From NCBI GenBank assembly GCA_947629505.1, contig CANRDW010000002.1:150-64149 (forward strand): a DNA stretch of 64,000 nucleotides. Reading direction: 5' to 3'. Each line of letters begins with the position of its first letter. The first letter of the stretch is position 1. The stretch is from an uncultured Clostridia bacterium. GTDB taxonomy: Bacteria; Bacillota; Clostridia; Christensenellales; UBA1242. Position numbers and translations under genes: made by a program. Below, in pieces: positions 7,414 through 23,448 of this stretch. A model generated the notes under the pieces. The model had not been told where the DNA came from, ran no database searches, and saw only the letters and a list, made by a program, of their open reading frames with translations.

Positions 7414-7423
7414 TGATTGACGC

Positions 7424-7780: not shown

Positions 7781-7789
7781 TATGTATTA

Positions 7790-7913: not shown

Positions 7914-8240
7914 CAAGAAATTTCAAACTTAATAGATGAAAAATTTGAAAAAGTGAGACAAGAACTCAAAGCGCAGATATGTCCAAAGTGGGTATTCTCA
8001 GAAGTTGAAAAGGCAATCTTGCGAAATTTAGACGAAGAATACAAATACATCGCAAGAGATGAAAATGGAGCGATTTATGTTTATAAGTCTGCTCCATATA
8101 AAAAATTTGGGGATAACAATAATTTCTATTGGAATTGCAAAGAAGACAGTGATTTTGCATATTTTGATTTTTTTCCAAATCACTTTCAGCAAATCACAGG
8201 GGATGACGAAGAGCCTTGTGAATTTAGAAAATACTTGTAG
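7905..8240 (+). CDS. Hypothetical protein (111 aa), first rightward gene
   Basis: RBS GGAGG then ATG. Confidence 0.7.
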   Translation: MTNQEISNLIDEKFEKVRQELKAQICPKWVFSEVEKAILRNLDEEYKYIARDENGAIYVYKSAPYKKFGDNNNFYWNCKEDSDFAYFDFFPNHFQQITGDDEEPCEFRKYL

Positions 8241-8248
8241 GAGGAAAT

Positions 8249-8428
8249 ATGGAAGCTTGGCTGATTAAAAGAATTGACGGGAAATATTACGATGTAGTGT
8301 ATGGAAGTTGGAGTAAACATTGGGCATATTGGTATATTCATAAAGAAGATGCCATGTTTGATATTACCAATTGTAAATTAAATGACTGCAAACTTGTTAA
8401 AGTGCGAATTGAAGAAGTGGAGGAATAA
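8249..8428 (+). CDS. Hypothetical protein (59 aa), not in the ORF track
   Basis: RBS AGGAGG then ATG at 8249. Translates MEAWLIKRIDGKYYDVVYGSWSKHWAYWYIHKEDAMFDITNCKLNDCKLVKVRIEEVEE. Stop at 8426-8428. Tightly packed between its neighbours. Confidence 0.6.
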   Translation: MEAWLIKRIDGKYYDVVYGSWSKHWAYWYIHKEDAMFDITNCKLNDCKLVKVRIEEVEE

Positions 8429-8429
8429 A

Positions 8430-8711
8430 ATGAGAATCATCAACGAAAAATTTTTCGATCAATTATCAATCAATCCTGGCAACACAGATTTGCCTTACAT
8501 AGACATTTTTAAAGACAAAGTTTGCGGGCTTGATAGTTCTATGATGCATCTTGGCAATTACATCTGGTTTTTAAATTGTTCTTTCAAAGGCTATAAAATT
8601 GCCAAAAAATTGAGGCCAATCTTGTCTTTTGACGACTTTATGCGTGAGCGTTGGCTTGAGGATATCTCAACTAAATCAAATATGGAATTTTCCCCTGGCG
8701 GTGAAGAATGA
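8430..8711 (+). CDS. Hypothetical protein (93 aa)
   Basis: RBS GGAGGAA then ATG at 8430 (MRIINEKFF...). The track start at 8382 overlaps the previous gene. Confidence 0.65.
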   Translation: MRIINEKFFDQLSINPGNTDLPYIDIFKDKVCGLDSSMMHLGNYIWFLNCSFKGYKIAKKLRPILSFDDFMRERWLEDISTKSNMEFSPGGEE

Positions 8712-8893
8712 GTGCATCATTCTTGTATCGCGAGGGCTTTTTTATATCCTGGCCCACAAAACACGCCGGAAACTGCAGAATTTTTGTTAAAAGCAAAAGT
8801 GAAGCAGACACCTTATACGCCACATTAAAATCGAAAAATCCGAATGTAGAAAAATACGCTGTAAGTTTTGGAAATATGAAAAAACTTGCTTAA
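8708..8893 (+). CDS. Hypothetical protein (61 aa)
   Basis: ATGA start/stop overlap with the upstream gene. Confidence 0.5.
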   Translation: MSASFLYREGFFISWPTKHAGNCRIFVKSKSEADTLYATLKSKNPNVEKYAVSFGNMKKLA

Positions 8894-8904
8894 GAGGTGA
8901 ACAC

Positions 8905-9510
8905 ATGAAAGAAGAAAGAATTAACTTCTGGGCAAATCTGCCATATCCTGTGCGCGCATCAACAAACATTTCAAGCGATGAGAAACTGTTGTATGCTGAA
9001 GTTGTTGCACGATTAACTCCGGCCGGGTGCTGCAAAACATCAAATGAAACATTTGCACGGTTTTTTAACACTGACATAAGGACTATCTCTCGCAGAGTGA
9101 AAAATCTAGTAACATGGGGATATATGAGGATAACGCGAGATTATAAACGTCACATTCGAAAACTTTGGCCACTAGAAATTCAAATCCCGGATGTTGCAGA
9201 AGAGCCTGAGAAGTGGTCTGAAAAACAAAAGATGTTTGCAAAGGCATTTCCTGAAAGGCAAATTGACATGGCAGACATTCCGGACAGTGTGGACATGGAA
9301 CTTCTGATTCAGAAAATAAAAGAATCCAAATTCCTGTCAAAAGCAAAAAACATGAGTTTGCGATCATGCGTGTTGAAATATAAAGCCATTGTGGCTGACG
9401 GATATCATCAATTCAGTGAAGAGAAGAAAAAAAAGTCCGGCACAGAAAGAAGTTACACTGAAGAAGAGGCAAACGCTTTATTTCAAAGCGCAGATGAAGT
9501 TGAAATTTAA
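8905..9510 (+). CDS. Putative DNA-binding / replication-organiser-like protein (winged HTH N-terminus)
   Basis: RBS AGAGGTG. ETFARFFNTDIRTISRRVKNLVTWGYMRI looks like a wHTH. The functional call is weak. Confidence 0.45.
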   Translation: MKEERINFWANLPYPVRASTNISSDEKLLYAEVVARLTPAGCCKTSNETFARFFNTDIRTISRRVKNLVTWGYMRITRDYKRHIRKLWPLEIQIPDVAEEPEKWSEKQKMFAKAFPERQIDMADIPDSVDMELLIQKIKESKFLSKAKNMSLRSCVLKYKAIVADGYHQFSEEKKKKSGTERSYTEEEANALFQSADEVEI

Positions 9511-9524
9511 AAGGAGAAACGACA

Positions 9525-10721
9525 GTGCAAGAAACACACAAACTAAGTGGATGGTGGAAGTTTTTAATTGCAGTAGTGATCATTATTGGCTTGCCTTTAA
9601 ATGTTTGGCTTTGTTATTATCAAATTTTCCTAAAAGAGTCCACAATCGTAATTGACAGTTCCTTTGTTGACACCGCTGGGTATCGTGATGAGGACATCTA
9701 TTTCATGGAAGTGAATTACTATTCAAACGAAAAGAAAAACGGTGTTGAGTGCATGGAGTTTAAATTTAATTATTATGTGGATACTTCAATACCTGAGAAA
9801 AAAGAAGATGGGACTTATGATAATAAATACATGTTTTCAACAGGGGTGCAATTTCAAGACTTAAATGATTATTATGATCATTACAAAACAGGGAGCTTCT
9901 TCGGTTCTACACAAATTCATATTATCCCTAAAAATATGACTTTTTATGCCAAACCAGACGGACTTGATCAAGGATATCAAGTTTCTGATATAGATCTTGG
10001 CAACAGTTGGATTTTTGATATAGGTGGAAAACTTTGTTTAATTGAACCGATTGGCCCCGTTTATTTTACTAATTTTTTATGGGTTAAAGAGTATATTGAT
10101 TATGACATTCATTTTATGATTACGAAAACCATTATGTCTATTCAATCAATGAAAAATGGAACGACAATCACTGCGTTTAATTTCAGCGATTTTTTAAAAA
10201 TAACAAAAGTATACAATGAAGAAACCGGCAAATTTGAAGAAGAACTTGTAGACGACAATATCATAAAATACTTCACCTTTATGAATGTTTTAATTAACAA
10301 GACAGATAATGGCATGATTGAGGCTAAAAATTCAATATTCAATTCATATGATGGCGATCCTGAATGGTCTTTTAATAATGTTGGAGATAAAGTAACATAT
10401 TGGCGCGATGACACTATTTATGACATAGATTCCGATGACTTCAAATTTGTTTCCGTGGGTGATGGTTATGAGATTGAATTAAAAGATTCTTGTGCAGATT
10501 TTCTTTCTGAATTCTCAGATGTGCTCTTAAATGTTGAGATTAATCTTGACGATTTTAGTTCGATCCTCAATATTATTGGATTTACAACACAACCTTTCAA
10601 GGATTTAAATGTTAATTCAATTAAGATCACTTCATCTACACAAAAAGATTTTATTGTATATGGTTTTAACGATCTGGACATTCAAACTGAAAATGTAAAT
10701 ATTGTCCGTGGAGGTGCGTAA
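9525..10721 (+). CDS. N-terminally membrane-anchored protein (398 aa)
   Basis: RBS AAGGAG then GTG. TM WWKFLIAVVIIIGLPLNVWLCYY, then an acidic, beta-rich ectodomain. Confidence 0.75.
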   Translation: MQETHKLSGWWKFLIAVVIIIGLPLNVWLCYYQIFLKESTIVIDSSFVDTAGYRDEDIYFMEVNYYSNEKKNGVECMEFKFNYYVDTSIPEKKEDGTYDNKYMFSTGVQFQDLNDYYDHYKTGSFFGSTQIHIIPKNMTFYAKPDGLDQGYQVSDIDLGNSWIFDIGGKLCLIEPIGPVYFTNFLWVKEYIDYDIHFMITKTIMSIQSMKNGTTITAFNFSDFLKITKVYNEETGKFEEELVDDNIIKYFTFMNVLINKTDNGMIEAKNSIFNSYDGDPEWSFNNVGDKVTYWRDDTIYDIDSDDFKFVSVGDGYEIELKDSCADFLSEFSDVLLNVEINLDDFSSILNIIGFTTQPFKDLNVNSIKITSSTQKDFIVYGFNDLDIQTENVNIVRGGA

Positions 10722-11326
10722 TGGGGTTGCTTGAATGGATTTTAATTATTGTTGGCATTGTAGCGTTTGTTTTAATTTTGCTTGCCTCGATTAAATATCA
10801 AAATTATAAAGTGCTTGGCATAATCGTGTTGCTTGCTTGGTGTGGACTTTCTGTGTATAGTGGATTTACTTTGCTTAAATACGAAAACTCGCATTCAAAC
10901 CTCTTTGGCACACCGGAAGTGCATGATCCTTATGAAAATTTTAATTACTACGAATATGATCTTTCTGGGATATCCTGGTATTTCACTGAAGAAGATCCAA
11001 CACTTAGATATGAGACAGAGTATAAAACCTCAATCAAGTTTGATGGCAATAAAAACAAATATCATTTACTTGTCAACAATGCACCTTGCACAAAAACCGA
11101 ATCAACAAATGGTAGACTTAAAGGTTTTTTGAAAAAACAGTTTACCCAGATGGATGGAGAAACCAAGATTATTAACTTTGAAATCACATTCGAATTTTAT
11201 GTGTCCAGCATCAAAATTAAAATTGAAACAGATGCAACTTCAGAAGATATTGGATATGTAAACGAATATGTAGAAATTAACGGATTCAACTTGAGAATTA
11301 TCAATGCCGTTTATGGCTTGGGTTAA
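10721..11326 (+). CDS. Two-TM membrane protein (201 aa)
   Basis: RBS GGAGG with a TAATG overlap. Two N-terminal hydrophobic helices. Confidence 0.75.
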   Translation: MGLLEWILIIVGIVAFVLILLASIKYQNYKVLGIIVLLAWCGLSVYSGFTLLKYENSHSNLFGTPEVHDPYENFNYYEYDLSGISWYFTEEDPTLRYETEYKTSIKFDGNKNKYHLLVNNAPCTKTESTNGRLKGFLKKQFTQMDGETKIINFEITFEFYVSSIKIKIETDATSEDIGYVNEYVEINGFNLRIINAVYGLG

Positions 11327-11338
11327 AAGGAGAAATTT

Positions 11339-13312
11339 ATGGATTGGAAAAAAGCACTTAAAATCACAGGTATCATATTGCTGATCTTGGCTTTTGTGTT
11401 TATTGCAATCTGGGTTGCGTTTAATTGGAAAACAATTTTTTCAGGATCAAAGATTTACACTTCACAGCAAAGAGAAGAATATGGAGATCAAAGATACAAT
11501 GCAGCACTTGAACAAGCAGAGAAGTGGCGCGTGCAAGTGCAAGAATTACAAAATAAAGTTGTTGTATATGAAGAAAATCAAAACGATCTTAAAGTTCAAG
11601 TAAGCACGTTGATAAATGAAAAAGAAACACTGCAAAACCAAAAAACTACTCTAGAAGCAGAAGTGAGACAAAAAGATGAACAAATTGCTGAACTTGAGCA
11701 ATCACATACAAATGATCAACAAGAAATAAAAACCTTAAAAACCGAAAAAAACAGTTTAGAGGCTGAAATTCAACAAAAAAATGCTCAAATTTCAGAAAAA
11801 GAGCAAAAAATCACACAATTTCAAACACAAATTATAGAATTAAAGAACAGTGTGACAAGGCTCATCTCTGAACTTGAAGCATATAGAGAAAAAGACATCG
11901 GGCTTAACAAAATTGAATTTATAAATAAAGATATTGTTGAAAGAGTTGTTTATTTCAAGAAAGGAGAAACCATTCCATATGTTCCAACTCTTGAGCAAAA
12001 AGTAGACGAATGGTTTTATGGTTGGACAAAGGAAAAAGGGAGCGAAAATGTCTTTAACCTTACAACAGAGTATACTCCATCTGGAGATGAGACTTTTTAT
12101 GCAGTCACCGGGCCAACAGTTCCGGTTGCTGTTCCAGACTCTTTTTCAAAAAATTTTAATTCATACTCTGAATATGGATGGTATGGAGAGAATTTAACAC
12201 TAAATGACATTTTAAATTTTGATGAAGATATTGATTTTGACGATCCAAATTTAACTTTAACATTAGGAACAAGTTCTCGTAAAACACCAAAAATTACTTT
12301 AAATACCAAGATAAAAGATTTTGCAGATAATGTCCAAACAACTTATAATGGCGGGCTTCTTGGCGAACATGCCGATGGAGTTTATGACTATGCTTGTTCG
12401 TTTAATATTAATCTTAAATATAAAGTTAAGACTATAATGAAAGAAACATTTACAGAGTCCTATCAACGAGATCCATGGTTTACAGACGAAGATGAAAATC
12501 ATTTTTTTGATTTGGGTTTTGACTTTAAATTTAGTAAAATTTTGGGCTTTGATTACTGTATTAGAGAGTCTATTGAAGATAAAGCTGTATGGAAAAGATT
12601 TACGGGTGATTTTACTTATGTCAAAGAGGATAGTTCTGGTGGATCGCAGAGTTCGTCTCCGGTTTACAAATGCACACTTGATAATGGAGAAACTTGGAAA
12701 TTCAAACTTTGGCTACCATTTGATGGAGGCATTTCATGTAAATTATATGAAGTGAGCAATATGACAGCAAGCCGAATCATAAATTACAGAAACATCGTTT
12801 TAGAATTGGATCTTATTACAAGGAACAATGTTTATACTACAGAATGTGCCTGTGCTAAACATACAGATGAAGCTTATGAACAATATTTAAATAATACATA
12901 TGCACATTGCTTTACAGATAATGCTGCTTTATGGGTTACAAAAAAGATTGAGGATAATAGCTTTGATTATATTTTAGCAGGTAACAATAATGGAGATCGT
13001 TGCTATAAAACAATTGAAATTTTGGCAAATAATGCAACAAATTTAAAACTTGACCTTTTTGCTTTAGAGAAAGATGGAAACTATTTTGGAATTATTTATA
13101 CCGTGCAAGGTGAAGATGGTCAGGATTACTCTGCGATGTTACTTGTTTATAGGGTAAAAGATGGTTATGGTGATAGTTTTGAAAGCAAAACTTTAATTGA
13201 AGAAAAACAGTGCAGCATAACTAGGATGGACAAACAAATTACAGTAAATTCTAGTGAGGGCAGCAAAACATATACATTAAATGAAGATAGACTTACGCTA
13301 GATGCTGCCTAA
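11339..13312 (+). CDS. Membrane-anchored coiled-coil protein with a List-Bact-type repeat (657 aa)
   Basis: RBS AAGGAG. N-terminal TM, a ~150-aa heptad-rich Q/E/K segment, then EWFYGWTKEKGSENVFNLTTEYTPSGDETFYAV (Flg_new-like) and a Cys-containing C-terminal domain. Confidence 0.8.
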   Translation: MDWKKALKITGIILLILAFVFIAIWVAFNWKTIFSGSKIYTSQQREEYGDQRYNAALEQAEKWRVQVQELQNKVVVYEENQNDLKVQVSTLINEKETLQNQKTTLEAEVRQKDEQIAELEQSHTNDQQEIKTLKTEKNSLEAEIQQKNAQISEKEQKITQFQTQIIELKNSVTRLISELEAYREKDIGLNKIEFINKDIVERVVYFKKGETIPYVPTLEQKVDEWFYGWTKEKGSENVFNLTTEYTPSGDETFYAVTGPTVPVAVPDSFSKNFNSYSEYGWYGENLTLNDILNFDEDIDFDDPNLTLTLGTSSRKTPKITLNTKIKDFADNVQTTYNGGLLGEHADGVYDYACSFNINLKYKVKTIMKETFTESYQRDPWFTDEDENHFFDLGFDFKFSKILGFDYCIRESIEDKAVWKRFTGDFTYVKEDSSGGSQSSSPVYKCTLDNGETWKFKLWLPFDGGISCKLYEVSNMTASRIINYRNIVLELDLITRNNVYTTECACAKHTDEAYEQYLNNTYAHCFTDNAALWVTKKIEDNSFDYILAGNNNGDRCYKTIEILANNATNLKLDLFALEKDGNYFGIIYTVQGEDGQDYSAMLLVYRVKDGYGDSFESKTLIEEKQCSITRMDKQITVNSSEGSKTYTLNEDRLTLDAA

Positions 13313-13333
13313 AAGCAAAAAGGAGAAGAAAAA

Positions 13334-14812
13334 ATGAAAAAAACAACAAGAATTGGCATGACGGCACTTGGAATCACTGCAGCGCTTGCTGGCGGAACTG
13401 TGGCTGGAGTTTATCTGGAAAAGGAAGTTCTGCAAAGAAATGGATTGGACATGCCCTCACAAAGTCAAGATGCTGAACAACAAAAGAAGTTAGAGCAAGA
13501 ATTACGTGAGAAAATCGAAAAAGAGATGAATGCGCAGTTCGAAAAAGAGAAGCAAGATCTCGAAAATCAACATCAAACAGATCTCGAAGCAGCAAAACAA
13601 GAGGGGAAAACTGAGGCGGAGGCTGATGTAAAAACTTTAAAAGATGTAATTTCAACCGTATTTAACAGTGATACAGCAGGGGAATTCACTCTTGAAAATG
13701 GTGATTTAATCAAATATGCGCCAAAAGAAGATAAAAGTGGCATATATGTTTTAAACACAAAAACACTTGAATATAAAACAGCAAATATAGATACTTCTTG
13801 GAGTTTTAACGTTTTGAAAGCAGATATATATAACAAAAGGCAAAACAATTTCACTACTTATGATGAAAACACCATTTATTTTCAAGTTTCTACTGAGGGG
13901 TTGTTTGCCATAAAGGACAATCTTGATATTGTAAAGATGATCGATCTGCACAATCAGGCTTTTAATGCCACTTCATTGCAAAAGTATGGTGACAAATATT
14001 TCCTGTTTGGCGGATCAAACGAAACAACATCTTTATTTGAAATTGATGGCTTAACTTGTAAAAAAATAACAACTCCAGAAGAGTTGTCTGGACACTTGTC
14101 TCAAATGTGGACAGATATGAAATATTTTTCTATTGATGCCGATGATCTAATCCTATATACAAATTCATCTCAAACTTCCTGTGGTGGAATATATAGGATT
14201 AAAGATGGAAACCTAGAAATCCTTTATGGAGATGCAGAATTAGATGCGCAAAATTCTCATGCAATTTACACACTAAATGTGCAAGAAAATAGCAAGGGTG
14301 ACAAAATTGTATTGGCAAATTATGAAAACAATTCAAAAAAGCATATATGGACATGCAATCTGTCACAAGGAAAAGATAGCATACAAGATCATGAACTTGC
14401 TGAATCTGTTAGTTCTGGAATAGCCTCTCTTGCATTCTTAGATGACGACTTCACAAATATAGTTGTTGGTGGGAATGGATGGGGTGATATTAAAGTTTAC
14501 AAATTTCAAGATCAAAACTATGTAATGCAAAGCGAAATATCTTTTAGTGGCTATTACAGATTTATCAAGCAGTTTGGTCAAGATATTGTTATTGGAACTC
14601 AAGCAGGGGAAAATTATTATCTCTATGTTGTTCGTGAAGATCAAGAACAAGTTTCGTCACAACAGCTGTTGAGTGGCCATAATATTGAGACTGCAGAATG
14701 GTATAACGGATATATGCCAGATGACAGTGATTTCATTGTTACTGATTCTCAAGGCTCTAAAGAATACTACAAGTATAATCAAGATTTACATACAGTTGAA
14801 AAAATAAATTAA
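13334..14812 (+). CDS. Membrane-anchored protein, paralogue A (492 aa)
   Basis: RBS AAGGAG. The N-terminal MKKTTRIGMTALGITAALAGGTVAGVYLEKEVL is shared with the 15981 gene. Short coiled coil, then a beta-rich domain. Confidence 0.8.
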   Translation: MKKTTRIGMTALGITAALAGGTVAGVYLEKEVLQRNGLDMPSQSQDAEQQKKLEQELREKIEKEMNAQFEKEKQDLENQHQTDLEAAKQEGKTEAEADVKTLKDVISTVFNSDTAGEFTLENGDLIKYAPKEDKSGIYVLNTKTLEYKTANIDTSWSFNVLKADIYNKRQNNFTTYDENTIYFQVSTEGLFAIKDNLDIVKMIDLHNQAFNATSLQKYGDKYFLFGGSNETTSLFEIDGLTCKKITTPEELSGHLSQMWTDMKYFSIDADDLILYTNSSQTSCGGIYRIKDGNLEILYGDAELDAQNSHAIYTLNVQENSKGDKIVLANYENNSKKHIWTCNLSQGKDSIQDHELAESVSSGIASLAFLDDDFTNIVVGGNGWGDIKVYKFQDQNYVMQSEISFSGYYRFIKQFGQDIVIGTQAGENYYLYVVREDQEQVSSQQLLSGHNIETAEWYNGYMPDDSDFIVTDSQGSKEYYKYNQDLHTVEKIN

Positions 14813-15063
14813 ACTCATGGCGCTTTAGTGCGCCAATATGGAAGTGTAGCACAATGAGAAGTGCAAAAGCCCGGCCAGCGAATATGTAGGTGCAAGGCCT
14901 ACCACTTTCACCAAAGCAGAGAGAAAACATTTAATCCTCCTATCCATAAATGTTCTGGGCTCTCTGCTTACCAAAGACAAGAAGTTTGAAATCCTAAGCC
15001 AATTTTTCTTCTTGTCTTACAACTTGCAAAAGCAAGAAATTTAATTTAAAAGGAGAAAAGTCT
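14813..15063 (+). other. 250-nt highly structured non-coding spacer (at least four strong hairpins)
   Basis: Stems TGGCGC/GCGCCA, GTAGG/CCTAC, AAGCAGAGAG/CTCTCTGCTT (with inner AACATTTA/TAAATGTT) and AAGACAAGAAG/CTTCTTGTCTT. No ORF. Confidence 0.5.
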
Positions 15064-15273
15064 ATGGCAAAAGAACATAAAAAGATGAGTTGGGTTGGCA
15101 TAATTTGCTGGATCTTAGTGTTTTTAATTGTCGGTGGTGGTGCAGGTTATGGGACTTACGCGACAGTTAAATACTTTGAGGATAAAAATGCAGAACAATC
15201 CAAGGTAACTGACGAGGAAGTTGGCTCACAAGATGTTAAACTCACAGAAGATGGCGTTGTTTTGTATGTGTAA
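15064..15273 (+). CDS. Small single-TM protein (69 aa)
   Basis: RBS AAGGAG. Basic N-terminus, TM WVGIICWILVFLIVGGGAGYG, acidic C-terminus. Confidence 0.7.
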   Translation: MAKEHKKMSWVGIICWILVFLIVGGGAGYGTYATVKYFEDKNAEQSKVTDEEVGSQDVKLTEDGVVLYV

Positions 15274-15291
15274 AAAGATTGGAGATAAAAA

Positions 15292-15807
15292 ATGATAAAG
15301 AAAAATCATAGAAAGCCAACTAAAAACAGAACTAAAGCAACAAGTAAAGTTAAATCAATTAAAAAACACGAAACAAATACTAAGAAGAGATCTAAAGGTC
15401 AAGACAAGAAAATTCGTATTGGACAAACACTTGAAACAAACGATATTTATCTTCCTCATAAAAAGAACAGAGTCCCAAAATCTAAAAAAAGGCCTATTCT
15501 TGTTGTTGATAAAAATGAGTTTAACGAACTCGTTGTTGTTCCTGGCAGTAAAAAGAAAACAAACAATACAGTTCCATATAATCGATATGGTTTAAAGAAT
15601 TATAGGATTAGTATTGAAATTGAAGATAACGAGGGGAATCCTATCAAAGAGAATGAAAAATTTAGAAAAACCAAAAACTGTTCTGTTCTTCCTGAAAGTG
15701 AAACCTTAAAAATTAAAGACAACGTTATTAATCACTCTCGTTTTACAAGTGAAAATAGAAAGAAATATAATCTTTTTATTAACAGACATAAAAAAAGTAG
15801 GGATTAA
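15292..15807 (+). CDS. Extremely basic protein (171 aa)
   Basis: RBS GGAG. The first ~70 residues are almost all K/R/T/N. The RPILVVDKNEFNELVVVPGS segment is faintly PemK/SH3-like, which is not a confident call. Confidence 0.7.
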   Translation: MIKKNHRKPTKNRTKATSKVKSIKKHETNTKKRSKGQDKKIRIGQTLETNDIYLPHKKNRVPKSKKRPILVVDKNEFNELVVVPGSKKKTNNTVPYNRYGLKNYRISIEIEDNEGNPIKENEKFRKTKNCSVLPESETLKIKDNVINHSRFTSENRKKYNLFINRHKKSRD

Positions 15808-15906
15808 TCCACCCTACTCAATGCCCAGACTTTCAGGGCAGGCGCTCCCTAGCCTAAATCCTTTGGATTTACCTATGAGCCTGTTAAACAAGTTTTTATA
15901 AACTTG
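15796..15906. repeat. ~110-nt structured repeat, copy A (inverted partner at 23332-23440)
   Basis: Near-identical to the reverse complement of 23332-23440. An internal hairpin differs by compensatory changes (TGCCC...GGGCA versus GCCAAG...CTTGGC). Confidence 0.8.
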
Positions 15907-15980
15907 ATACAGACATTATATTACATCTTATTTAAAAAGTCAATACTTTTTGGCAAAAAATTTAAAAAAAAGGAGAGAAA

Positions 15981-17375
15981 ATGAAAAAATCAACAAAAAT
16001 TGGTATGACAGCTCTTGGAATCACTGCAGCGCTTGCTGGTGGAACTGTGGCCGGGGTTTATCTAGAAAAGGAAGTTCTGCATCCTCAAGTGCAACAGCAA
16101 ACAAATCAATCAGAAAGTAATGAAGATATTCTTGTTGGATATATTATATCTTCAAATGACTCTGAGATGGGACAATATATTCCTGCTAATGCAAATAAAA
16201 CATATTCTTATTTAGGAACTGATGGAGAATTAATTGACGATCCACAAATTATTGCTCAAAAAGAATGTTCTTCACTTGGTGGAAAAGGAATTTATGTTTT
16301 TAATATTAAAACAAAAACTTGTAAAAAGTTTTTTAAAGACACTTCTGTAGATGAAATCAATTTCACGTCATTGGCGAGTATCCAATATTCACCTTATTCT
16401 TCGAGAATTGTTTGTGTTGGACAAGATGTTTATTACTTTGATCCGGGCACTTTCGATTTTATTAAAACAGACATTCAGGGCGATGTAAAAAAAGTATATA
16501 ATGCGCAATATGGCAACATTCTGTTGTTGGCAGACAAAATTGCTTGTTTAGATGTTGATTCCAGGAAAACAAGCACCATGGAGTCACCTCAACTTATCAA
16601 AGAATTAGTGGATGATCAATCACTTCATTATGATGAAGAATTAGAAACATTCTACTTTACTTCTTCTCGAGCATTTGATGAATACAACAAAGGCCTGGCT
16701 GTATATAAAATCAGTCAAGATAGAACTGAGGTAAAGACAATTTTTGAGGGGACTTCAAACGATAGATATGCACAAGTCCAATCTTGCAAAGACAAACTCA
16801 TATTCCATAAATATGAAAATTCTAGTTGGCAATCACCTTGTGTAAGCGCTATCGTTTGTGATTTGGCCAAATATACATATAAAGAGATCACCTATCCAGA
16901 ACAACTTGCAAGCCAATTTAATGATTCAACTTCCTTGTTTTTGGAAGATAAGTATATGATCATGGTTGCTAACACGACAGAAGATTCAAACACACTTAAA
17001 TTTTACGCCTTTGATCTAGATGCCGGCACATATACGACAAAAGAAATCACTGACGAAAGTTTAAGTATAAGAACGGGATCTGGATGCATTCAGTTTTTGG
17101 GCTTATCTACACGCAATGACTATACACTTATTTTCCTAAGCAATTACGACTATTCTAATAGACTGTATTGGGGATATCTTGCTCACATTCAAGATGGTGA
17201 ACTAGAATTAAGTATCGTAAATGAAGATTTTAACAAAACAAAACATCAAGGCGTTGTTTACTTCGATTGGTTTAATAGCAATACCATCGAAACTAGAGAA
17301 GAGGATGGCACAACAAACAAATATCTCTTTGATGAAAAAACCTTAACCTTTACAAAAACAGTGGAGGAAGTGTAG
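15981..17375 (+). CDS. Membrane-anchored protein, paralogue B (464 aa)
   Basis: RBS AAGGAG. The first ~100 nt are ~90% identical to the 13334 gene, then the sequences diverge. Confidence 0.8.
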   Translation: MKKSTKIGMTALGITAALAGGTVAGVYLEKEVLHPQVQQQTNQSESNEDILVGYIISSNDSEMGQYIPANANKTYSYLGTDGELIDDPQIIAQKECSSLGGKGIYVFNIKTKTCKKFFKDTSVDEINFTSLASIQYSPYSSRIVCVGQDVYYFDPGTFDFIKTDIQGDVKKVYNAQYGNILLLADKIACLDVDSRKTSTMESPQLIKELVDDQSLHYDEELETFYFTSSRAFDEYNKGLAVYKISQDRTEVKTIFEGTSNDRYAQVQSCKDKLIFHKYENSSWQSPCVSAIVCDLAKYTYKEITYPEQLASQFNDSTSLFLEDKYMIMVANTTEDSNTLKFYAFDLDAGTYTTKEITDESLSIRTGSGCIQFLGLSTRNDYTLIFLSNYDYSNRLYWGYLAHIQDGELELSIVNEDFNKTKHQGVVYFDWFNSNTIETREEDGTTNKYLFDEKTLTFTKTVEEV

Positions 17376-17437
17376 GACTGTGATTTCGCTTTCGTAAGAA
17401 AGAAAATCAATAAAATTTAAAAAAAGGAGAAAAAAGT

Positions 17438-17605
17438 ATGCAAAAAGCAAAAAAAACAGCGAAAAAAGCGCTCAAAACTCAAAAAAGAGTTAAAAGTGCA
17501 TCGAAAAAACCTACTAAGGCTGCTTATGCTTCAAAAAGGACTGTAAATGGAAAAAGCACTCCAAAAAGCAAAAACCGCCGTGTAATTGTAATCAATGTTA
17601 AATAA
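17438..17605 (+). CDS. Very basic 55-aa protein, not in the ORF track
   Basis: RBS AAGGAGA then ATG at 17438. Translates MQKAKKTAKKALKTQKRVKSASKKPTKAAYASKRTVNGKSTPKSKNRRVIVINVK. The stop abuts the next gene's start. Confidence 0.6.
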   Translation: MQKAKKTAKKALKTQKRVKSASKKPTKAAYASKRTVNGKSTPKSKNRRVIVINVK

Positions 17606-18511
17606 TTGAAAGAATATTCTAAAATTGAAGATATTTTCGCAGATGGAATATTTACGCCTTATGAAACATTGGTTGTTTGGGCGAAGCGCGGCAAGGGCAA
17701 GTCCGCTTTTGCCGCCTTTCTCCAAACTGAATTTATGAAACCTGCTATGGCAAGCATTTCCTTAGACAAAGCCAAAGAAAAGTGTGAGAAATTAAAAAGA
17801 GCCGGGATTTATATTGAGCCTCCAAGAGATCATTTAGTTTTCAATGACACTTTTTGTGAAGATTACAGATATCCGGGAAGAATTGCCTATGAAATTAAAG
17901 CAACAGACATTGGCATTCCTAATAAAATTCATAGAGTAAAGCAACTCATCCCATTTTCACAAATCTTCTTAGAAGAGATTCAAGATTTATTTGACAGTCA
18001 CCTTGGTGCGCCACCAACTTTTGTCACTAAATCATTTGAACTTGGCCGACATAATGGACTTTTTATTTGTATGACTTTACAAAGGCCAATTCGTTTACAT
18101 AAAGATATCCGTGATCTTGCCACGTTTGTTGAAATTGTTCAGATGTCTGTTGTAACAAACAAGTATGGAAAGATTTTAAAGACTGTTTGGTTGTGTAATA
18201 TCATTTATGACAACGCAAACTTAGAGGCTTATCTTCAATCCAAAGACGATGCGTATGTTGATTTAAAAGTTAAGTTTGCCTTTAAAGGCAATATATTCAA
18301 CTGTTATGATCCTGAATTCTTTGCTCTTGCTTTCTATTCTGGGAATAACACTGAGGAATTAAAACTTACTAAATCACAACGTATTGATTTTACACCTGAG
18401 TCTATACAATCTTTTGAACAAAATCACTGTATTGATATTCCTGAAACTTATCGAGGGAAAATGCTAAAATCTACAAAATCGAAGAAAAAGGATGGTGATA
18501 ATGATGACTGA
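17606..18511 (+). CDS. Zot / inovirus pI-like P-loop NTPase (soluble, 301 aa)
   Basis: Walker A AKRGKGKS, Walker B IFLEEIQD, and ELGRHNGLFICMTLQRPIRLHKDIRDL matching the Zot-family RHxGxDIxLxTQ block. TTG start. No C-terminal TM seen. Confidence 0.55.
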   Translation: MKEYSKIEDIFADGIFTPYETLVVWAKRGKGKSAFAAFLQTEFMKPAMASISLDKAKEKCEKLKRAGIYIEPPRDHLVFNDTFCEDYRYPGRIAYEIKATDIGIPNKIHRVKQLIPFSQIFLEEIQDLFDSHLGAPPTFVTKSFELGRHNGLFICMTLQRPIRLHKDIRDLATFVEIVQMSVVTNKYGKILKTVWLCNIIYDNANLEAYLQSKDDAYVDLKVKFAFKGNIFNCYDPEFFALAFYSGNNTEELKLTKSQRIDFTPESIQSFEQNHCIDIPETYRGKMLKSTKSKKKDGDNDD

Positions 18512-18965
18512 TGAAGAACGCAAAGCACTTGAAGAGTATGTTCTTTCTGAAGATTATTTTAATGAGTTTAAACAACTCAGAGAAATCTCTGACATCATGC
18601 CCTCCAAAGATTTTAAAGAGTGTTTAAAATTAGTCTCTAAGGGATTACGTGAGAAATATTCATATAGATATAATATTTCCACTAAATACAACAAGAAAAC
18701 GCCATGGTGGCGCAGATGGAAAGAGAAGCGTGATGCCGCTCGTGAACGTAAGATAGAGCAGCATCTTTCTGAGGTGACGAATAAAGATGCTTCTCAAATA
18801 AATCAAAGGCTTGATTCAATTGAAGAAGCTATTAAGAATAATACTCCTTCATTGCCAACTTCAGTGACAACTGAAGTTTTACTTGGAACAAGTAAATCAA
18901 CCAAATTAATTGAAAATTCAAAAGAAACGAAATCAGACAAGGAAAGCGAAGCGCTTGCTGATTGA
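18501..18965 (+). CDS. Hypothetical charged helical protein (~154 aa)
   Basis: Overlaps the ATPase gene's end. The start could be 18492, 18501 or 18504. Confidence 0.65.
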   Translation: MMTDEERKALEEYVLSEDYFNEFKQLREISDIMPSKDFKECLKLVSKGLREKYSYRYNISTKYNKKTPWWRRWKEKRDAARERKIEQHLSEVTNKDASQINQRLDSIEEAIKNNTPSLPTSVTTEVLLGTSKSTKLIENSKETKSDKESEALAD

Positions 18966-19101
18966 GTTTTGAATTTTCAGTTGCGAAAATATGGTTAATT
19001 AAATCTTATTTTCCAAAGGTCGTATAGACCTTTGGCGGTTGCATAAATGCAACTTGGCCCAAAATTTACCAATTTTTTAAATTTTTTTTGGAGAAATTTT
19101 T

Positions 19102-19461
19102 ATGACGAAAAATGATTTTATTACTGAAAATTTAAGATTTTGCCGGATTTTAACTCAGCAAAAAATTTCTGCGGAAGATGATCGGGCTATAAAAAATTTT
19201 ATAGCACAAAATTCAGAGCATATTTTTACAGATCTTGTTGCGCATCAAATTAAAATTTCCAAGATCGATTATGTAAATGACACTATGCGTTTATGTTACC
19301 TTTTGCCACAGTGTGAATTTGGATCTCACGAGGATCTACAAATTAAGAAAGAAATTGCATCGAATTTATCTAAAATTTCTCAAATTGAAAAACAAGAGAG
19401 TGAAGTTCGGCGCAACAAAAAAGATAGAGATCTGATTTTAAAGATCACTTCATGTATGTAG
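19102..19461 (+). CDS. Hypothetical protein (119 aa)
   Basis: RBS GGAGAA then ATG. Confidence 0.65.
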   Translation: MTKNDFITENLRFCRILTQQKISAEDDRAIKNFIAQNSEHIFTDLVAHQIKISKIDYVNDTMRLCYLLPQCEFGSHEDLQIKKEIASNLSKISQIEKQESEVRRNKKDRDLILKITSCM

Positions 19462-19469
19462 GAGGGCCT

Positions 19470-20294
19470 ATGAAAACGATAAATCTAGAGAATTACAAAT
19501 TAAATGAAGATGAACACTTAGATGAAAATCATCTGCCTGTATGCAACAAATGTGGCATGAAAAGATATATTATCAATCCTTTCAATAATCAAATACAAAT
19601 TTGCTTGTGTAAATGTCAAAAAGCAAATTTTGATGAACAGCAAGCAAGATTCGAAAGCCAGCAGTTGTCCATAAAGATTGAAAAAACAAGATTTTTGAGT
19701 CTTTTAGGGAAGAGATATCAGAATGTAAACTTTGACAACAGTGAATTAGACTCACAAAACATTGAGATCTACAGCAAGGTTAAAGATTATGCAGAACATT
19801 ATGAGGAAATGTTAAATAAGGGCTTAGGATTTTACATCTATGGAAAAAACGGCGTAGGAAAAACACATCTCTTGGCTTGTTTATGCAATTATTTGATAGA
19901 ACACGCTCAGGCCTGCTGTTTTACGAATTTTTTAAACATATCTGAGAATTTGAAAGAAGCGTATATATCAAAGCAAGAAGAAAGTGGAGTGATTGAGAAG
20001 TATTCCCGTGTCAACTTCCTCATTATAGATGATTTAGGAAAGGAAAGTTTTAAAAAGATAAAAAGTGACACAGAGAACTTGTGGCTTGAAGAGAAAATCT
20101 TTGAAATTTTAAACAATCGCTACAACAACATGCTTCCTACAATATTTTCTAGCAATTACTCTCTGATCGAACTAAGCACTGTTTTTGGATTTGATAAAGG
20201 AATTGTTGACAGAATTTATGAATTTTCGAGCAGTATTTTTGAAATGAAAGGCAAAAATCGAAGATATTCCGTTTACAAACTAGAAAATCAATAA
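19470..20294 (+). CDS. DnaC/IstB-like AAA+ helicase-loader protein with an N-terminal Cys cluster
   Basis: RBS AGGAGGG then ATG at 19470. Walker A GKNGVGKTHL, Walker B LIIDDLGKE. N-terminal CNKCG...CLCKC. Confidence 0.8.
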   Translation: MKTINLENYKLNEDEHLDENHLPVCNKCGMKRYIINPFNNQIQICLCKCQKANFDEQQARFESQQLSIKIEKTRFLSLLGKRYQNVNFDNSELDSQNIEIYSKVKDYAEHYEEMLNKGLGFYIYGKNGVGKTHLLACLCNYLIEHAQACCFTNFLNISENLKEAYISKQEESGVIEKYSRVNFLIIDDLGKESFKKIKSDTENLWLEEKIFEILNNRYNNMLPTIFSSNYSLIELSTVFGFDKGIVDRIYEFSSSIFEMKGKNRRYSVYKLENQ

Positions 20295-20325
20295 TATAAA
20301 GTTTAACGCTACTAAGGAGGGCCTT

Positions 20326-20520
20326 ATGGAAAAGACACTTAAAGAAAAAATAGAAAAAATAATGGAATGGCATGATTGGGCACCATGGCAATTTGCAAAA
20401 TGGCTTGGTGTTTCTAAATCTCAAGTCACACGGTGGCGTGCTGGTCAACAGATTCCACGTGGTGAAACGTATATGAAAATTTGCAAGGAATACGAAGATA
20501 AATTTTCAGATGGAGGCTAA
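20326..20520 (+). CDS. Small HTH protein (Cro/XRE-like, 64 aa)
   Basis: RBS AAGGAGGG. QFAKWLGVSKSQVTRWRAGQQIP. Confidence 0.65.
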   Translation: MEKTLKEKIEKIMEWHDWAPWQFAKWLGVSKSQVTRWRAGQQIPRGETYMKICKEYEDKFSDGG

Positions 20521-20522
20521 AT

Positions 20523-20777
20523 ATGGAAAAGGGGTTGAGTGTATATTCACAAGTTGATCGAGAGCAATTCTTTTCAATTTCAACAATAGATCCAGAGCAG
20601 ATGAAAAAGCATGGATTAAATATGTCTATTACTCAGTTGAAAGAATTAGCGCGAAATCATCCGTGGGCGAAAGAAATCCGCACAGGGAGTCCCACAAATG
20701 AGAAAAGACAGTGTTGGACAAAGATTTACAGATATGACGACTTCAAAAACTTTAATTATAAAAATGTAGGAGGTTAA
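20523..20777 (+). CDS. Hypothetical protein (84 aa), possibly excisionase-like
   Basis: RBS GGAGG. MSITQLKELARNH...IYRYDDFKNF resembles MerR-type Xis only weakly. Confidence 0.5.
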   Translation: MEKGLSVYSQVDREQFFSISTIDPEQMKKHGLNMSITQLKELARNHPWAKEIRTGSPTNEKRQCWTKIYRYDDFKNFNYKNVGG

Positions 20778-20778
20778 T

Positions 20779-21003
20779 ATGGATATTTTGGCTCTTATAC
20801 TTTGGTTAATGATAATTTTCTCAGGGCTGCTTGTAATTGCAAATATAGTCATTTTGTTTAGAAGTTATTTTAAAGACAGAGATGTCTGTGACTTTTCCCA
20901 ACAAATAGATTATATGCGGAGACAGATTGCAAGTTTGCAGGCTGAAGTTGACGCTTTAAAATTAAAAATTCGAAAGAAAAAAGGAGATGATTCTGATGCT
21001 TAA
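20779..21003 (+). CDS. Small single-TM protein with a basic coiled C-terminus (74 aa)
   Basis: RBS AGGAGG. TM ILALILWLMIIFSGLLVIANIVILF. Confidence 0.65.
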   Translation: MDILALILWLMIIFSGLLVIANIVILFRSYFKDRDVCDFSQQIDYMRRQIASLQAEVDALKLKIRKKKGDDSDA

Positions 21004-21331
21004 ATTCTTTAAAAACATTTTAAAATTTGCTCTTGACGATATTGGATCGTTAATTTATTCAATTATTGCTGCTGTAGTAAGCGGATTTTTATTTCCACTA
21101 TTTGTTCATCTTGTAAAAACAGAGGGATCTATCGCCATTATTGCAGCCATATTTGCCGGGATATTTGCTGTCAGTTTTATAATTTCAAGCGCAACTTGTG
21201 CTCTGGTTGTCCTTGTTAAAGGTTGCTTTAAGGACAAGAAGTGGAAGAAAGTTGTATATATAACACTTTCTGCATTAACAGTGGTTGCAGATATATTAAT
21301 TGTCGCAATTTCATTCGCAATGGTGGTGTAA
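20987..21331 (+). CDS. Multi-TM small membrane protein (114 aa)
   Basis: RBS AAGGAG. Three or four hydrophobic helices. Confidence 0.65.
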   Translation: MILMLKFFKNILKFALDDIGSLIYSIIAAVVSGFLFPLFVHLVKTEGSIAIIAAIFAGIFAVSFIISSATCALVVLVKGCFKDKKWKKVVYITLSALTVVADILIVAISFAMVV

Positions 21332-21332
21332 T

Positions 21333-21806
21333 ATGGCCGAAGAATATTTAGTAAAAATAAAAAATTCCGATTTTGTCTTACTTTCAACTTTCTATAAGCC
21401 CGAGGCAGAAGAATTTGTTAAGTATTGTGAAGAAAACCAACAGGAAGTTGAAGTTGATGTTTTACAAGTAAAGGATAAAGAAGCAATCCATAAATTATCT
21501 ATGCAACAGAAAGAGTCAAGGGCGTTGATAAACTCTTTTGCACAATATGTAAATCGTGAAGATATTTTAAAACTTGTGGCCGATAAACATGATTTAGAGC
21601 ATGTAAGAAAAGCAAATAACGAAGAAATTGCTCTTCTTCACACTCATATTGACAAATTAAGGGAAATTTTGGCCGAAAGAGAGACGGTTTTAACAATGCC
21701 TGAACAGAAAGCAAGAAAAGAGTTGTTAGAGACAAAACACACTCTACAATGTGCCTTAAATCGAATAAAAGAGTTAAACCAGGAGATAAAAATTAAAAGA
21801 AGATAG
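21333..21806 (+). CDS. Coiled-coil hypothetical protein (157 aa)
   Basis: ATG at 21333 immediately after the upstream stop. The track start at 21300 overlaps the previous gene. Confidence 0.6.
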   Translation: MAEEYLVKIKNSDFVLLSTFYKPEAEEFVKYCEENQQEVEVDVLQVKDKEAIHKLSMQQKESRALINSFAQYVNREDILKLVADKHDLEHVRKANNEEIALLHTHIDKLREILAERETVLTMPEQKARKELLETKHTLQCALNRIKELNQEIKIKRR

Positions 21807-21978
21807 TTTAGGATTATCTTCTCACATGGTAGAATGAACTAAGGGAGTTCTTTAACAGGTCCAAATCCTGATTCTACCTATAATCCAAGGTGTAATTCCT
21901 TGCTAAAATAACCATTTTTAATGATTTTAACAAAAACGCGACACAAAGTGCCATGCGTTTTTTTTGTATATTAAAGTG

Positions 21979-22017
21979 ATAGACAAATTTTGACGGGGTT
22001 ATAGACAAATTTGTCTA
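21979..22017. promoter_or_regulatory. Iteron-like repeats (2 x ATAGACAAATT) plus the palindrome TAGACAAATTTGTCTA, next to an AT-rich tract
   Basis: Direct repeats at 21979-21989 and 22001-22011. Palindrome at 22002-22017. Followed by ~80 nt of >85% A+T. Confidence 0.4.
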
Positions 22018-22253
22018 CTACTCAAAAAAAGAATCAAAAAAATATACCAATTAAATTAATATAATATACTTTTATTTATTATATAAAGAGAGATATATGT
22101 CACAATTTTGCCAATTTATCTCCGCGCAAGCGCAAAAATAGGTGCTTTTTTATTCGCAAGATGGCAGTTTCCGTTTGCCCGTCAGCGAAAATGCTGGCAA
22201 AAGGCTAAAAAATAATAAACTGCATCGAAAAAAAATCTTTTAGACAAAAAGTA

Positions 22254-22282
22254 TTGACTTTTTTGTAAAAAATTGGCATAAT
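22254..22282 (+). promoter_or_regulatory. Sigma-A-type promoter of the TA operon
   Basis: TTGACT, 17-nt spacer, CATAAT. Confidence 0.55.
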
Positions 22283-22300
22283 TTTAATAAGGAGGCTTAA

Positions 22301-22900
22301 ATGACTAAGGAATATGAAGCAAAAGACATTGCACAATGGTTTATAAATCGCGCTGCAATGGATGCAGAAATGTTTTATGGGGAATACATGACAAATCTCA
22401 AGTTGCAAAAACTTCTTTACTTTGCACAAGGCTTTTCTTATGCAATAAACAACAAACCACTTTTCAAGGAAGAACTTCAGGCATGGCAACATGGTCCTGT
22501 TGTTCCATCTATATACATGACTTATAAAGTATGCAAAGCAGATCCAATTTCAGATGTAAATCCTGTTGAAATAGATGATGAAACTTCTGCACTGTTGGAA
22601 TTAGTGTATAAACATTTTGGAATCTATTCTGCAACACAATTAAGAAACATCTCTCACAGTCAAATGCCTTACATGAAAAATTATAAAGAGAATGTTCCAA
22701 ACATTAAAATCCCAAAAGCAGATATTAAGCAACAATTTCAACAAGAGCACGAGTCTTTATCAAAGGAATTTATCGAAAATAAGGAAGAATTACTGAATTA
22801 TGCTGAAACTTGTTACATCAACAGCGTTCCAAACTTAAAAGAGAAGATTCTTCAAGACAATAACGATCTGGTAGAGGTGGATTGGCGCAATGAGTTATAA
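22301..22900 (+). CDS. Panacea (DUF4065/SocA-like) domain antitoxin
   Basis: NLKLQKLLYFAQGFSYAINNKPLFKEELQAWQHGPVVPSIY is the Panacea-domain signature. Overlaps the toxin gene by 11 nt. Confidence 0.8.
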   Translation: MTKEYEAKDIAQWFINRAAMDAEMFYGEYMTNLKLQKLLYFAQGFSYAINNKPLFKEELQAWQHGPVVPSIYMTYKVCKADPISDVNPVEIDDETSALLELVYKHFGIYSATQLRNISHSQMPYMKNYKENVPNIKIPKADIKQQFQQEHESLSKEFIENKEELLNYAETCYINSVPNLKEKILQDNNDLVEVDWRNEL

Positions 22901-23150
22901 AATACAAATGACAAGAGACGCTTTGAAAGACTATGAAAAAGTTAAAAAATCAGTTTTTCATGGTGCTGTAAAAGAATTACTCAACATTTTAGCAGAAGAT
23001 CCACTTAAATTTCCACCACCGTTTGAACAACTTAGAGGGGATTTAAAAGGTTATTATTCCAGAAGAATAAATAAACAACATCGTCTTGTTTATACAATTC
23101 AAGGTGAAGTTGTAATTATAAAATCAATGTGGACACATTATGAAACATAA
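22890..23150 (+). CDS. YoeB/Txe-family (RelE-fold) toxin
   Basis: LKGYYSRRINKQHRLVYTIQGEVVIIKSMWTHYE matches YoeB (FWSRRITEEHRLVY...CRYHY). Confidence 0.85.
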   Translation: MSYKIQMTRDALKDYEKVKKSVFHGAVKELLNILAEDPLKFPPPFEQLRGDLKGYYSRRINKQHRLVYTIQGEVVIIKSMWTHYET

Positions 23151-23208
23151 AAATGAGCCAACAATGGCTCATTTTTTTAATTATTGTGTTACACTTCCTG
23201 GTAAAAAA

Positions 23209-23230
23209 TTATCGTCAAAATTATCGTCAA
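23209..23230. promoter_or_regulatory. Putative integrase arm-type sites, right end
   Basis: TTATCGTCAA at 23209-23218 and 23221-23230, ~50 nt inside attR. Mirrors 3766-3787. Confidence 0.5.
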
Positions 23231-23281
23231 AAAACTCTACTCATTCGTAATTTAGCAACGAGTGGCGATTGGCCACAAGTT

Positions 23282-23328
23282 CCTTACAAGCAGAGGGTCA
23301 TAGGTTCGAGCCCTATAACTCCCACCAA
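23282..23328. repeat. attR core (displaced 3' fragment of tRNA-Val)
   Basis: Identical 47-mer to 3636-3682 and lacks the tRNA 5' half. Confidence 0.9.
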
Positions 23329-23331
23329 AAG

Positions 23332-23440: not shown

Positions 23441-23448
23441 TTCTTAAG

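Follow-up and report, generated by a model that had tools for sequence, protein, structure and literature searches.

The 64,000-nucleotide (nt) stretch of DNA analysed here, from an uncultured Clostridia bacterium (contig CANRDW010000002.1; hereafter the window), carries an integrative element next to a tRNA-Val gene and, in and beside that element, two inverted copies of a repeat that a preliminary description of the sequence had singled out as structured. We found that the repeat is a complete small-RNA (sRNA) gene of ~118 nt belonging to an unclassified family. Its first copy is convergent with an open reading frame (ORF) whose product is predicted to have a MazF/Kid fold, and overlaps the stop codon of that ORF. 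The preliminary description had missed that the repeat is a whole gene placed in this way; the pairing of ORF and sRNA is the conserved unit. Judged from sequence and structure models, the chances that the sRNA is the negative partner, either RNA antitoxin or repressor, of a toxic or dosage-sensitive MazF-fold protein appear about evenly balanced.

The repeat as a small-RNA gene

A repeat search of the window returned inverted arms at 15806-15898 and 23337-23429, 93 nt in length, 92% complementary and separated by 7438 nt. This confirms the reported near-identity of 15796-15906 with the reverse complement of the region near 23332-23440; the conserved blocks named at that time are present in both sequences, and the hairpins AGTAGGG/CCCTACT (15796-15818) and TAAATCC/GGATTTA are real. 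Whole-genome BLAST (0.99 Mb in 43 contigs, ~86% complete) identified exactly two copies, both in the window, and a covariance-model search of the window recovered the same two and no others. The longest run of perfect identity between them is 51 nt. Five of the ~8 differences fall in one variable hairpin, P3, which reads GCCCAGACTTTCAGGGC in copy 1 and GCCAAGAATGACTTGGC in copy 2. Both arms of this hairpin had been proposed to change together, and most of the differences are indeed located there, but within the window just one pair is strictly compensatory (C-G to A-U), accompanied by one U.U mismatch that is replaced by A-U. The covariation evidence from the window copies alone is thin.

The anatomy of copy 1 is that of a gene read from the minus strand. 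Its promoter matches 11 of 12 consensus positions and is followed, in 5’ to 3’ order, by hairpin P1, single-stranded UUUAACAGG, the long imperfect hairpin P2, the variable P3, AUUGAG, and P4, in which AGUAGGG-UGGAUUAAU-CCCUACU precedes U7 and forms an intrinsic terminator. The -35 and -10 elements are equal in sequence and distance in five of the six close copies (four genomes), copy 2 being the exception, and stand at equal distance also in diverged loci. Conserved elements of the RNA include a single-stranded AACAGG after P1 and the loop of P4. Certain unpaired nucleotides are invariant across families: CC between P2 and P3, AUUG between P3 and P4, and GG...UUAAU in the P4 loop.

Applied to the whole window at gathering thresholds, Rfam 15 recognised two tRNAs alone and provided no family for the repeat; at E <= 10, both copies yielded merely chance-level matches outside the motif or at its edge. 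Several specific identities were considered and dropped. The P4 region resembles the T-box sequence 'AGGGUGGNACC', but no T-box model matched at E <= 10, and tRNA-like, tracrRNA, CRISPR-repeat-mimic, omega-RNA, retron and bridge-RNA assignments had neither an adjacent effector gene nor an Rfam match. A 26-amino-acid (aa) peptide on the plus strand of the sRNA (ATG at 15822) was rejected because length changes in P2 and P3 break its frame in homologues. Covariation lent no support to a pseudoknot joining the P4 loop to the P2-P3 junction: the one contact possible there is between CC and GG, which are invariant, and the neighbouring column is without covariation.

The wider family provides the covariation that the two window copies hardly offer. 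In the genus, a covariance model built from six copies matched 10 of the 151 genomes sampled; it also matched beside every close ORF homologue that we fetched and in other families of the order. Pair statistics were taken from a 23-sequence alignment (A9) fitted to this model. Standard pairs occupied 96.7% of cells, compared with 37-48% when partners were slid by 1-3 columns; 24 of the 26 pairs had changes on both sides, and none of 500 shuffles reached the observed pairing values. P1, which lies outside the model, forms in 17 of 18 closer members with differing sequences. The compensatory pairs across homologues bear out the earlier proposal that a structure is under selection, as opposed to a decaying duplication. 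The paired cells contained 43 G.U/U.G and only 3 A.C/C.A combinations, and therefore the structure is selected on the strand that bears the promoter and terminator, not on its complement. Because this asymmetry coincides with a consensus promoter and a U-tract terminator, what had been described as 'RNA or DNA structure' can be narrowed to an RNA of one defined strand, minus for copy 1 and plus for copy 2.

The close copies fall on two sequence backbones, and their P3 occurs in three alleles. Of these, allele b (CCAAGAAWGACTTGG) is found on both backbones, in window copy 2 and in the third copy of a tandem array in another genome (G171, see below; G and L numbers are our handles for genomes and loci), which suggests that the P3 sequence itself, beyond its pairing, is selected or swapped among copies.

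An exact scan of genome contigs with the 17-mer ATTGAGTAGGGTGGATT, which lies within 15796-15818, gave at least 118 loci. By chance this 17-mer is the antisense of 'GKSTLLN' codons and so matches P-loop NTPase genes from many phyla; among the matches listed, nearly all were such antisense Walker-A coding sequence in unrelated phyla, and two matches in viral contigs were likewise unrelated coding sequence. The true matches among those listed came from three rabbit-gut Clostridia metagenome-assembled genomes only, and the close relatives used in this study are rabbit-gut assemblies of this kind, labelled 'uncultured Clostridia bacterium'.

Convergence with a reading frame of predicted MazF/Kid fold

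The last five codons and the stop codon of the ORF lie within the terminator of sRNA copy 1, an overlap of 18 nt. The end of the ORF, AAA AAA AGT AGG GAT TAA (KKSRD*), is the complement of the P4 U-tract, the 3’ arm of P4 and part of its loop. According to the preliminary description, its proposal would fall if the motif proved to be no more than the tail of a gene fragment that had been duplicated. The overlap with the ORF is confined to these 18 nt, and orphan copies retain the whole RNA without the ORF, contrary to such an origin.

The tail-to-tail pair was present at almost all of the ~26 loci examined, which represent several families of the order. The ORF homologue likewise overlaps a convergent sRNA in genomes G078, G085 and G100 and in metagenome contigs L148, L150, L152 and L157/L158, and is separated from it by 38 nt in G028 and by 45 nt in L155; G019 and G036 carry the convergent pair too. 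At loci from other families, the sRNA was identified at the expected place and strand in L161, L162, L163, L164 and L173 (E 5e-6 to 0.04), with weaker covariance-model matches at the expected place in L165, L166, L167 and L175; several of these order-level matches are individually weak and rest on position. Where the model has no match (L170/L171, L172 and L210), the antisense strand read by eye displays TTGACA and TATAAT 17 nt apart, three hairpins, and a terminator with a U-tract complementary to the C-terminal Lys codons of the ORF. L174 appears alike by eye with a weaker promoter, L169 is ambiguous, and L176-L178 are partial matches.

The genes flanking the pair, both upstream and downstream, differ between lineages. 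Immediately upstream is a 69-aa transmembrane protein in the window, and elsewhere unrelated genes, for 77- and 88-aa proteins, a 128-aa protein or a 339-aa G2P-like replication protein (Rep). As the neighbours change and the pair stays, the conserved unit is the ORF with its convergent sRNA. At the loci examined we found no conserved protein antitoxin beside the ORF and no MazE/Kis-like antitoxin gene upstream of it, and Tandem Repeats Finder reported no tandem repeats in 14500-16300.

The fold of the ORF product was modelled with AlphaFold. An alignment of only 9 sequences gave a poor model, with a predicted local distance difference test (pLDDT) score of 56, and an 80-sequence alignment raised this to 89. 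The latter model consists of a basic, disordered N-terminus of ~43 aa, which is of lower confidence and without secondary structure, a beta core spanning residues 45-126, and two C-terminal helices. When compared with the PDB by Foldseek, its six best matches were all Kid or MazF-type toxins, among them 1m1f, 2c06, 7bye, 4mzm and 7bxy, with probabilities of 0.93-0.99 and target-normalised template-modelling (TM) scores of 0.51-0.60; ToxN structures appeared only at rank 38-39 (2xd0_A at rank 38), with a TM score of ~0.25. A nearly invariant R67 and an L-T-T/G-S-x motif align with R29 and C-T-T(52) of E. coli MazF, an alignment that is not significant alone (hhalign E = 0.098). The family consists of soluble proteins of 140-210 aa with a predicted MazF fold and is small, with 9 clusters among 5.8 billion proteins in a word search and 149 representatives at E <= 1e-3 in a library of 1.84 billion proteins. 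PADLOC returned nothing for the ORF, a PDB sequence search with the protein-family profile returned nothing relevant, and an IMG/VR search with the protein family returned no relative.

A promoter-like site (TTTACA, 18-nt spacer, TATAAT; 11 of 12 positions) is located on the plus strand at 15742-15771, in the 3’ end of the ORF, and faces the ORF at 15981-17375 across the sRNA gene. We treated this site as a chance occurrence, the underlying codons not being conserved in homologues. Very basic stretches were noted at two places, the N-terminal ~43 residues of the MazF/Kid-fold ORF (15292-15420) and a 55-aa ORF at 17438-17605 that abuts the Zot-like gene of the element (Table 1).

The host element, copy 2 and orphan genes

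Copy 1 lies inside the integrative element and copy 2 just outside attR, as the preliminary description had placed them. Copy 2 begins 1 base past the 47-nt attR repeat and 2 bases past the CCA of the tRNA-Val fragment, and its homology to other copies is limited to the transcribed region. No plus-strand promoter was detected upstream of copy 2, and a strong bidirectional terminator is present upstream at 23149-23176. In G091, the nearest relative in which this site is empty, an ordinary terminator comes after tRNA-Val; copy 2 must therefore have been inserted behind the tRNA in this lineage specifically. Copy 2 may once have been fused directly behind tRNA-Val, in which case the prophage would later have severed it from the tRNA promoter. 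The tRNA-Val(TAC) gene is a common integration site in the genus (loci L179-L208), and a full tRNA-Val with a 45-48-nt 3’ fragment 4-14 kb away occurs in several genomes, e.g. G069, G026 and G009. Many of the tRNA-Val loci share a downstream ACACAAC...GTTGTGT hairpin and arm repeats of the TTATCGTCAAA or TAGTCAAA type.

In addition to the genes in Table 1, the element encodes an HTH_36 / replication-initiator-like protein, five membrane-anchored proteins, a DnaC-like ATPase and a SocA/Panacea-domain protein. PHROGs recognised almost nothing on the element, and no relative was found in IMG/VR. The Zot match is weak in the window and clear in relatives, and in G078 the G2P-like protein is a rolling-circle Rep (REP_ORF2-G2P, 1.9e-9); from these sequence similarities, an inovirus-like nature of the element is plausible but not proven. 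A Zot homologue was present in 58 of the 151 genus genomes and the MazF-like gene in 23. Of these 23, 21 were also Zot-positive, usually with the two genes less than 1 kb apart on one contig. This co-occurrence within the larger Zot-positive set indicates that the module is an accessory cassette of this class of element. The SocA/Panacea-domain gene (22301-22900, Pfam E = 1.4e-18) overlaps an 86-aa ORF (22890-23150) that comes next at the right end of the element, and these two could constitute a second, protein-based toxin-antitoxin (TA) pair.

Table 1. Positions of the features discussed, in forward-strand coordinates of the window.
Feature	Position	Strand	Basis or remark
tRNA-Val(TAC), full	3606-3682	plus	contains attL core 3636-3682
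Integrative element, 19.7 kb, at tRNA-Val	3636-23328		bounded by 47-nt direct repeat
Tyrosine integrase	3750-4907	minus	Pfam Phage_integrase, E = 3.5e-12
DUF3800 protein	5704-6603		
MazF/Kid-fold ORF, 171 aa	15292-15807	plus	weak Pfam PemK_toxin; AlphaFold; Foldseek
sRNA gene, copy 1	15790-15908	minus	covariance-model match 136 bits; fold z-score -3.1; alignments
Copy 1, U-tract	15790-15796	minus	
Copy 1, P4	15796-15818	minus	
Copy 1, P3	15823-15839	minus	
Copy 1, P2	15844-15880	minus	
Copy 1, P1	15889-15906	minus	
Copy 1, promoter	15915-15943	minus	TTGACT 15938-15943, 17-nt spacer, TATAAT 15915-15920
Zot/pI-like ATPase	17606-18511	plus	Pfam Zot weak, E = 0.0012; clear in relatives, 2.7e-9
attR, 47 nt	23282-23328	plus	identical to 3636-3682; tRNA-Val 3’ part, anticodon loop to CCA plus one base
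sRNA gene, copy 2, orphan	23329-23446	plus	covariance-model match 134 bits
Copy 2, P3	23396-23412	plus	
Copy 2, P4	23417-23440	plus	
Second hairpin with T-run (AAGGCTGTCATTTGACAGCCTTTTTT)	23449-23474	plus	between copy 2 and tRNA-Pro

Orphan sRNA genes, separate from any MazF-like ORF, occur at chromosomal loci of other genomes. One, complete with promoter and terminator, lies between the genes for a Y-family DNA polymerase and a tRNA/rRNA uracil-5-methyltransferase in G153; another, equally complete, lies between spoIIIAA and a XerC/D-like recombinase gene in G036. G171 has three tandem sRNA genes (L139, 7905-8441) spaced ~190-200 nt apart between a SHOCT-domain protein gene and ddl, each with a TTGACT/TATAAT promoter and a terminator; the P3 hairpin varies among the three, and the middle copy has diverged strongly. 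The MazF-like gene was not found in the orphan-bearing genomes G158 (~98% complete, 7 contigs), G171 (~82%) and G153 (~89%). In G158 (L147, 1288-1644), an sRNA variant is convergent to tRNA-Val, 170 nt away, after arm-type repeats; its P4 is without a U-tract and the RNA seems to extend to a second terminator. The 'CTCTATCAGC' variant of G158 was also seen in G028 and L155. Contigs L148 and L149 have the same sequence across the MazF-like gene, the sRNA and a further 45 nt past the -35. They diverge at position 6790, where L148 leads into phage genes and L149 into the chromosomal locus of a Y-family polymerase, with 97.5% identity to the orphan locus of G153. This split points to recombination, or an assembly switch, at the sRNA repeat.

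Possible roles of the RNA and comparison with known systems

In the reading that we favour, the product of the ORF is probably a toxin of the endoribonuclease type, borne by Zot-type (inovirus-like) integrative elements. Neutralisation by the sRNA would take one of two forms, either binding of the protein, as in type III systems, or pairing with the 3’ part of a read-through mRNA, as in type I systems. Protein binding is favoured by the combination of invariant junction and loop nucleotides with freely covarying helices, and by the conserved single-stranded AACAGG; the orphans keep all of these features. ACA-type motifs, as contained in AACAGG, are the kind recognised by MazF enzymes. An antisense mode is favoured by the convergent, 3’-overlapping layout and by the mRNA strand of the terminator having no U-tract, from which a read-through of ~120 perfectly complementary nt is predicted. 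Promoter-bearing chromosomal orphans would in turn be a trans source of antidote or repressor, with a role in anti-addiction or immunity. Taken in its entirety, the proposal is of a MazF/Kid-fold toxin checked by a single independent opposite-strand sRNA whose terminator is made from the C-terminal Lys codons and stop of the toxin gene, on filamentous-type prophages of gut Clostridia whose hosts keep stand-alone sRNA genes and P3-allele arrays as immunity or anti-addiction factors. We advance this full version tentatively, as a possible account.

A number of observations weigh against the favoured reading. The Foldseek E-values are just ~0.015. The PemK_toxin match (PF02452), the sole Pfam match of the family, scores 18.1 bits, below the gathering cut-off of 23.1, and this domain is detected at E < 0.01 in only 4 of 80 family members, with a best E of 6e-4. 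Pairing of the sRNA with the ribosome-binding region of the ORF gave no signal at 10 loci (z -0.7 to +1.0). The pair counts reported above come from a model-fitted alignment, which biases them towards structure, the margin being large nonetheless. The layout is neither that of a canonical type III system, there being no repeat array, nor that of a canonical type I system, there being no small hydrophobic peptide. Finally, the ORF is very basic at its N-terminus and directly follows a G2P-like rolling-circle Rep in G078, G085 and G028, which is the slot of the single-stranded-DNA-binding protein in filamentous phages, and it may be a non-toxic nucleic-acid-binding protein.

This last point has a specific form, in which the MazF-fold protein is an analogue of gpV that binds single-stranded nucleic acid, and the sRNA is its ligand or regulator, for example in titration or in a switch between replication and packaging. 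The disordered, basic N-terminus and the position after Rep both fit such a role, as does the binding of single-stranded DNA substrate analogues by MazF (PDB 5cr2 is among the fold matches). We nevertheless regard it as unlikely, since there is conservation at the positions aligned with Arg and Thr of the MazF catalytic site, and since a gene present in 23 genus genomes as compared with 58 that are Zot-positive is accessory and not core. The sRNA could also be an antisense RNA with a regulatory role in the phage, comparable to lambda OOP, P1 c4 or P4 CI, placed antisense in an operon of same-strand genes, gating read-through to downstream genes (a 464-aa protein, the Zot/pI ATPase and others) and keeping the element quiet; the link to the MazF-like gene would then be merely positional, the orphans would be trans-acting immunity genes and the P3 alleles immunity types. 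Transcripts of the ORF are expected to read through the sRNA gene, the mRNA strand of the hairpin being free of a U-tract, and the -35 of the sRNA is only 36 nt from the start of the next ORF. Many genus members have the order MazF-like gene, 230-400-nt gap, Zot gene, the module heads an early operon in L150 and L152, and P3 allele b occurs on two backbones as a specificity cassette would. However, the downstream gene varies by lineage (Zot, the 464-aa protein, small ORFs or the integrase side), leaving the MazF-like ORF as the sole constant partner, and junction and loop nucleotides that are invariant across families would be unexpected of a purely cis-acting antisense RNA. We therefore consider this account doubtful, with a real chance of being right.

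The repeat might instead act as DNA, as a single-strand origin, a packaging signal or a recombination site, including one for the inversion of the right third of the element that had been suggested from the two window copies. An element of this type may replicate via single-stranded DNA, the copies share their 51-nt perfect identity, and L148 and L149 diverge at the repeat. We hold a role in DNA to be very improbable, because the selected strand is opposite to the genes, and is thus not the packaged strand if the virion strand has gene sense as in known filamentous phages, because conservation extends to a linear double-stranded consensus promoter and to a terminator with a U-tract, and because orphans sit between housekeeping genes and no inverted arrangement was seen at any related locus. 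A neutral, decaying duplication without function would accommodate the missing promoter of copy 2, and is scarcely credible in view of the family-wide covariation and of promoters and terminators that are conserved across genera and families.

If the toxin reading is true, these loci add to the RNA-controlled toxin or phage modules a structured-RNA family that had not been catalogued and a gene layout that is new. A type II toxin fold (MazF/Kid) would be tied to an RNA partner beyond the three known type III families, in inovirus-like elements whose hosts are Gram-positive gut bacteria. Orphan sRNA genes, among them the three-gene array with differing P3, would be cases of hosts retaining the RNA regulator of a phage as protection. 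The ORF with its convergent sRNA also serves in practice as a compact marker for a poorly annotated class of integrative elements.

Our full-text literature search turned up no account of a MazF-fold gene paired with a convergent sRNA. The 2019 inovirus census assigned every predicted TA pair to type II or type IV, and only a single pair lay outside Proteobacteria-associated inoviruses (PMC6813254). Type III toxins share the MazF/Kid/CcdB fold, and their antitoxins are tandem repeats of 36-45 nt, encoded on the same strand upstream of the toxin in one operon with a terminator between the two (PMC5086642). The module resembles the type III systems ToxIN, CptIN and TenpIN in combining a protein of predicted MazF/Kid-like fold with a structured non-coding RNA on mobile elements, without a protein antitoxin. 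It differs from them in that a single ~118-nt sRNA, not an array, is expressed from its own opposite-strand promoter, convergent and downstream, overlapping the stop codon of the ORF, and in that the protein is far closer to Kid and MazF than to ToxN. It probably resembles the type II systems MazEF and Kis-Kid (parD) in protein fold, with Arg and Thr positions that align with the catalytic residues of MazF, whereas it has no upstream MazE/Kis-like gene, no conserved upstream neighbour and a PemK score below the gathering threshold.

The gene geometry finds its counterpart elsewhere. In the type I loci par/Fst-RNAII of pAD1 and bsrG/SR4 and txpA/RatA of B. subtilis prophage regions, toxin and antitoxin genes are convergent, with a 3’ overlap or a shared terminator; the convergent type I toxins of Firmicutes are hydrophobic peptides of <60 aa, and their loci are found on prophages or plasmids. 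The sRNA described here similarly overlaps the 3’ end of an ORF as an antisense RNA (18 nt of coding region with the stop), but the product is a basic 171-aa protein of predicted MazF/Kid fold, and the sRNA has invariant junctions that antisense pairing does not need. Lambda OOP, P1/P7 c4 and P4 CI are small structured prophage RNAs with their own promoter, antisense to an operon. The sRNA has these latter features in common with them, and its allelic variation could likewise set specificity; unlike them it has a constant protein-gene partner, and it has no sequence or structure similarity to them, as judged by the lack of an Rfam match. In SymE/SymR of E. coli, a type I system, a cis-antisense RNA represses a sizeable toxin of TA-related fold with RNase-like activity. 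There the RNA, SymR, covers the 5’ end of symE, whose product is of AbrB/MazE fold; the present module also encodes a sizeable protein of TA-related fold, whereas its sRNA lies at the 3’ end of the ORF and the predicted fold is that of MazF. Because the module departs from the defining layout of type III, from the toxin type of type I and from the protein antitoxin of type II, we place it in none of the three. Its predicted protein fold is like that of types II and III, and its gene geometry is that of the convergent type I loci.

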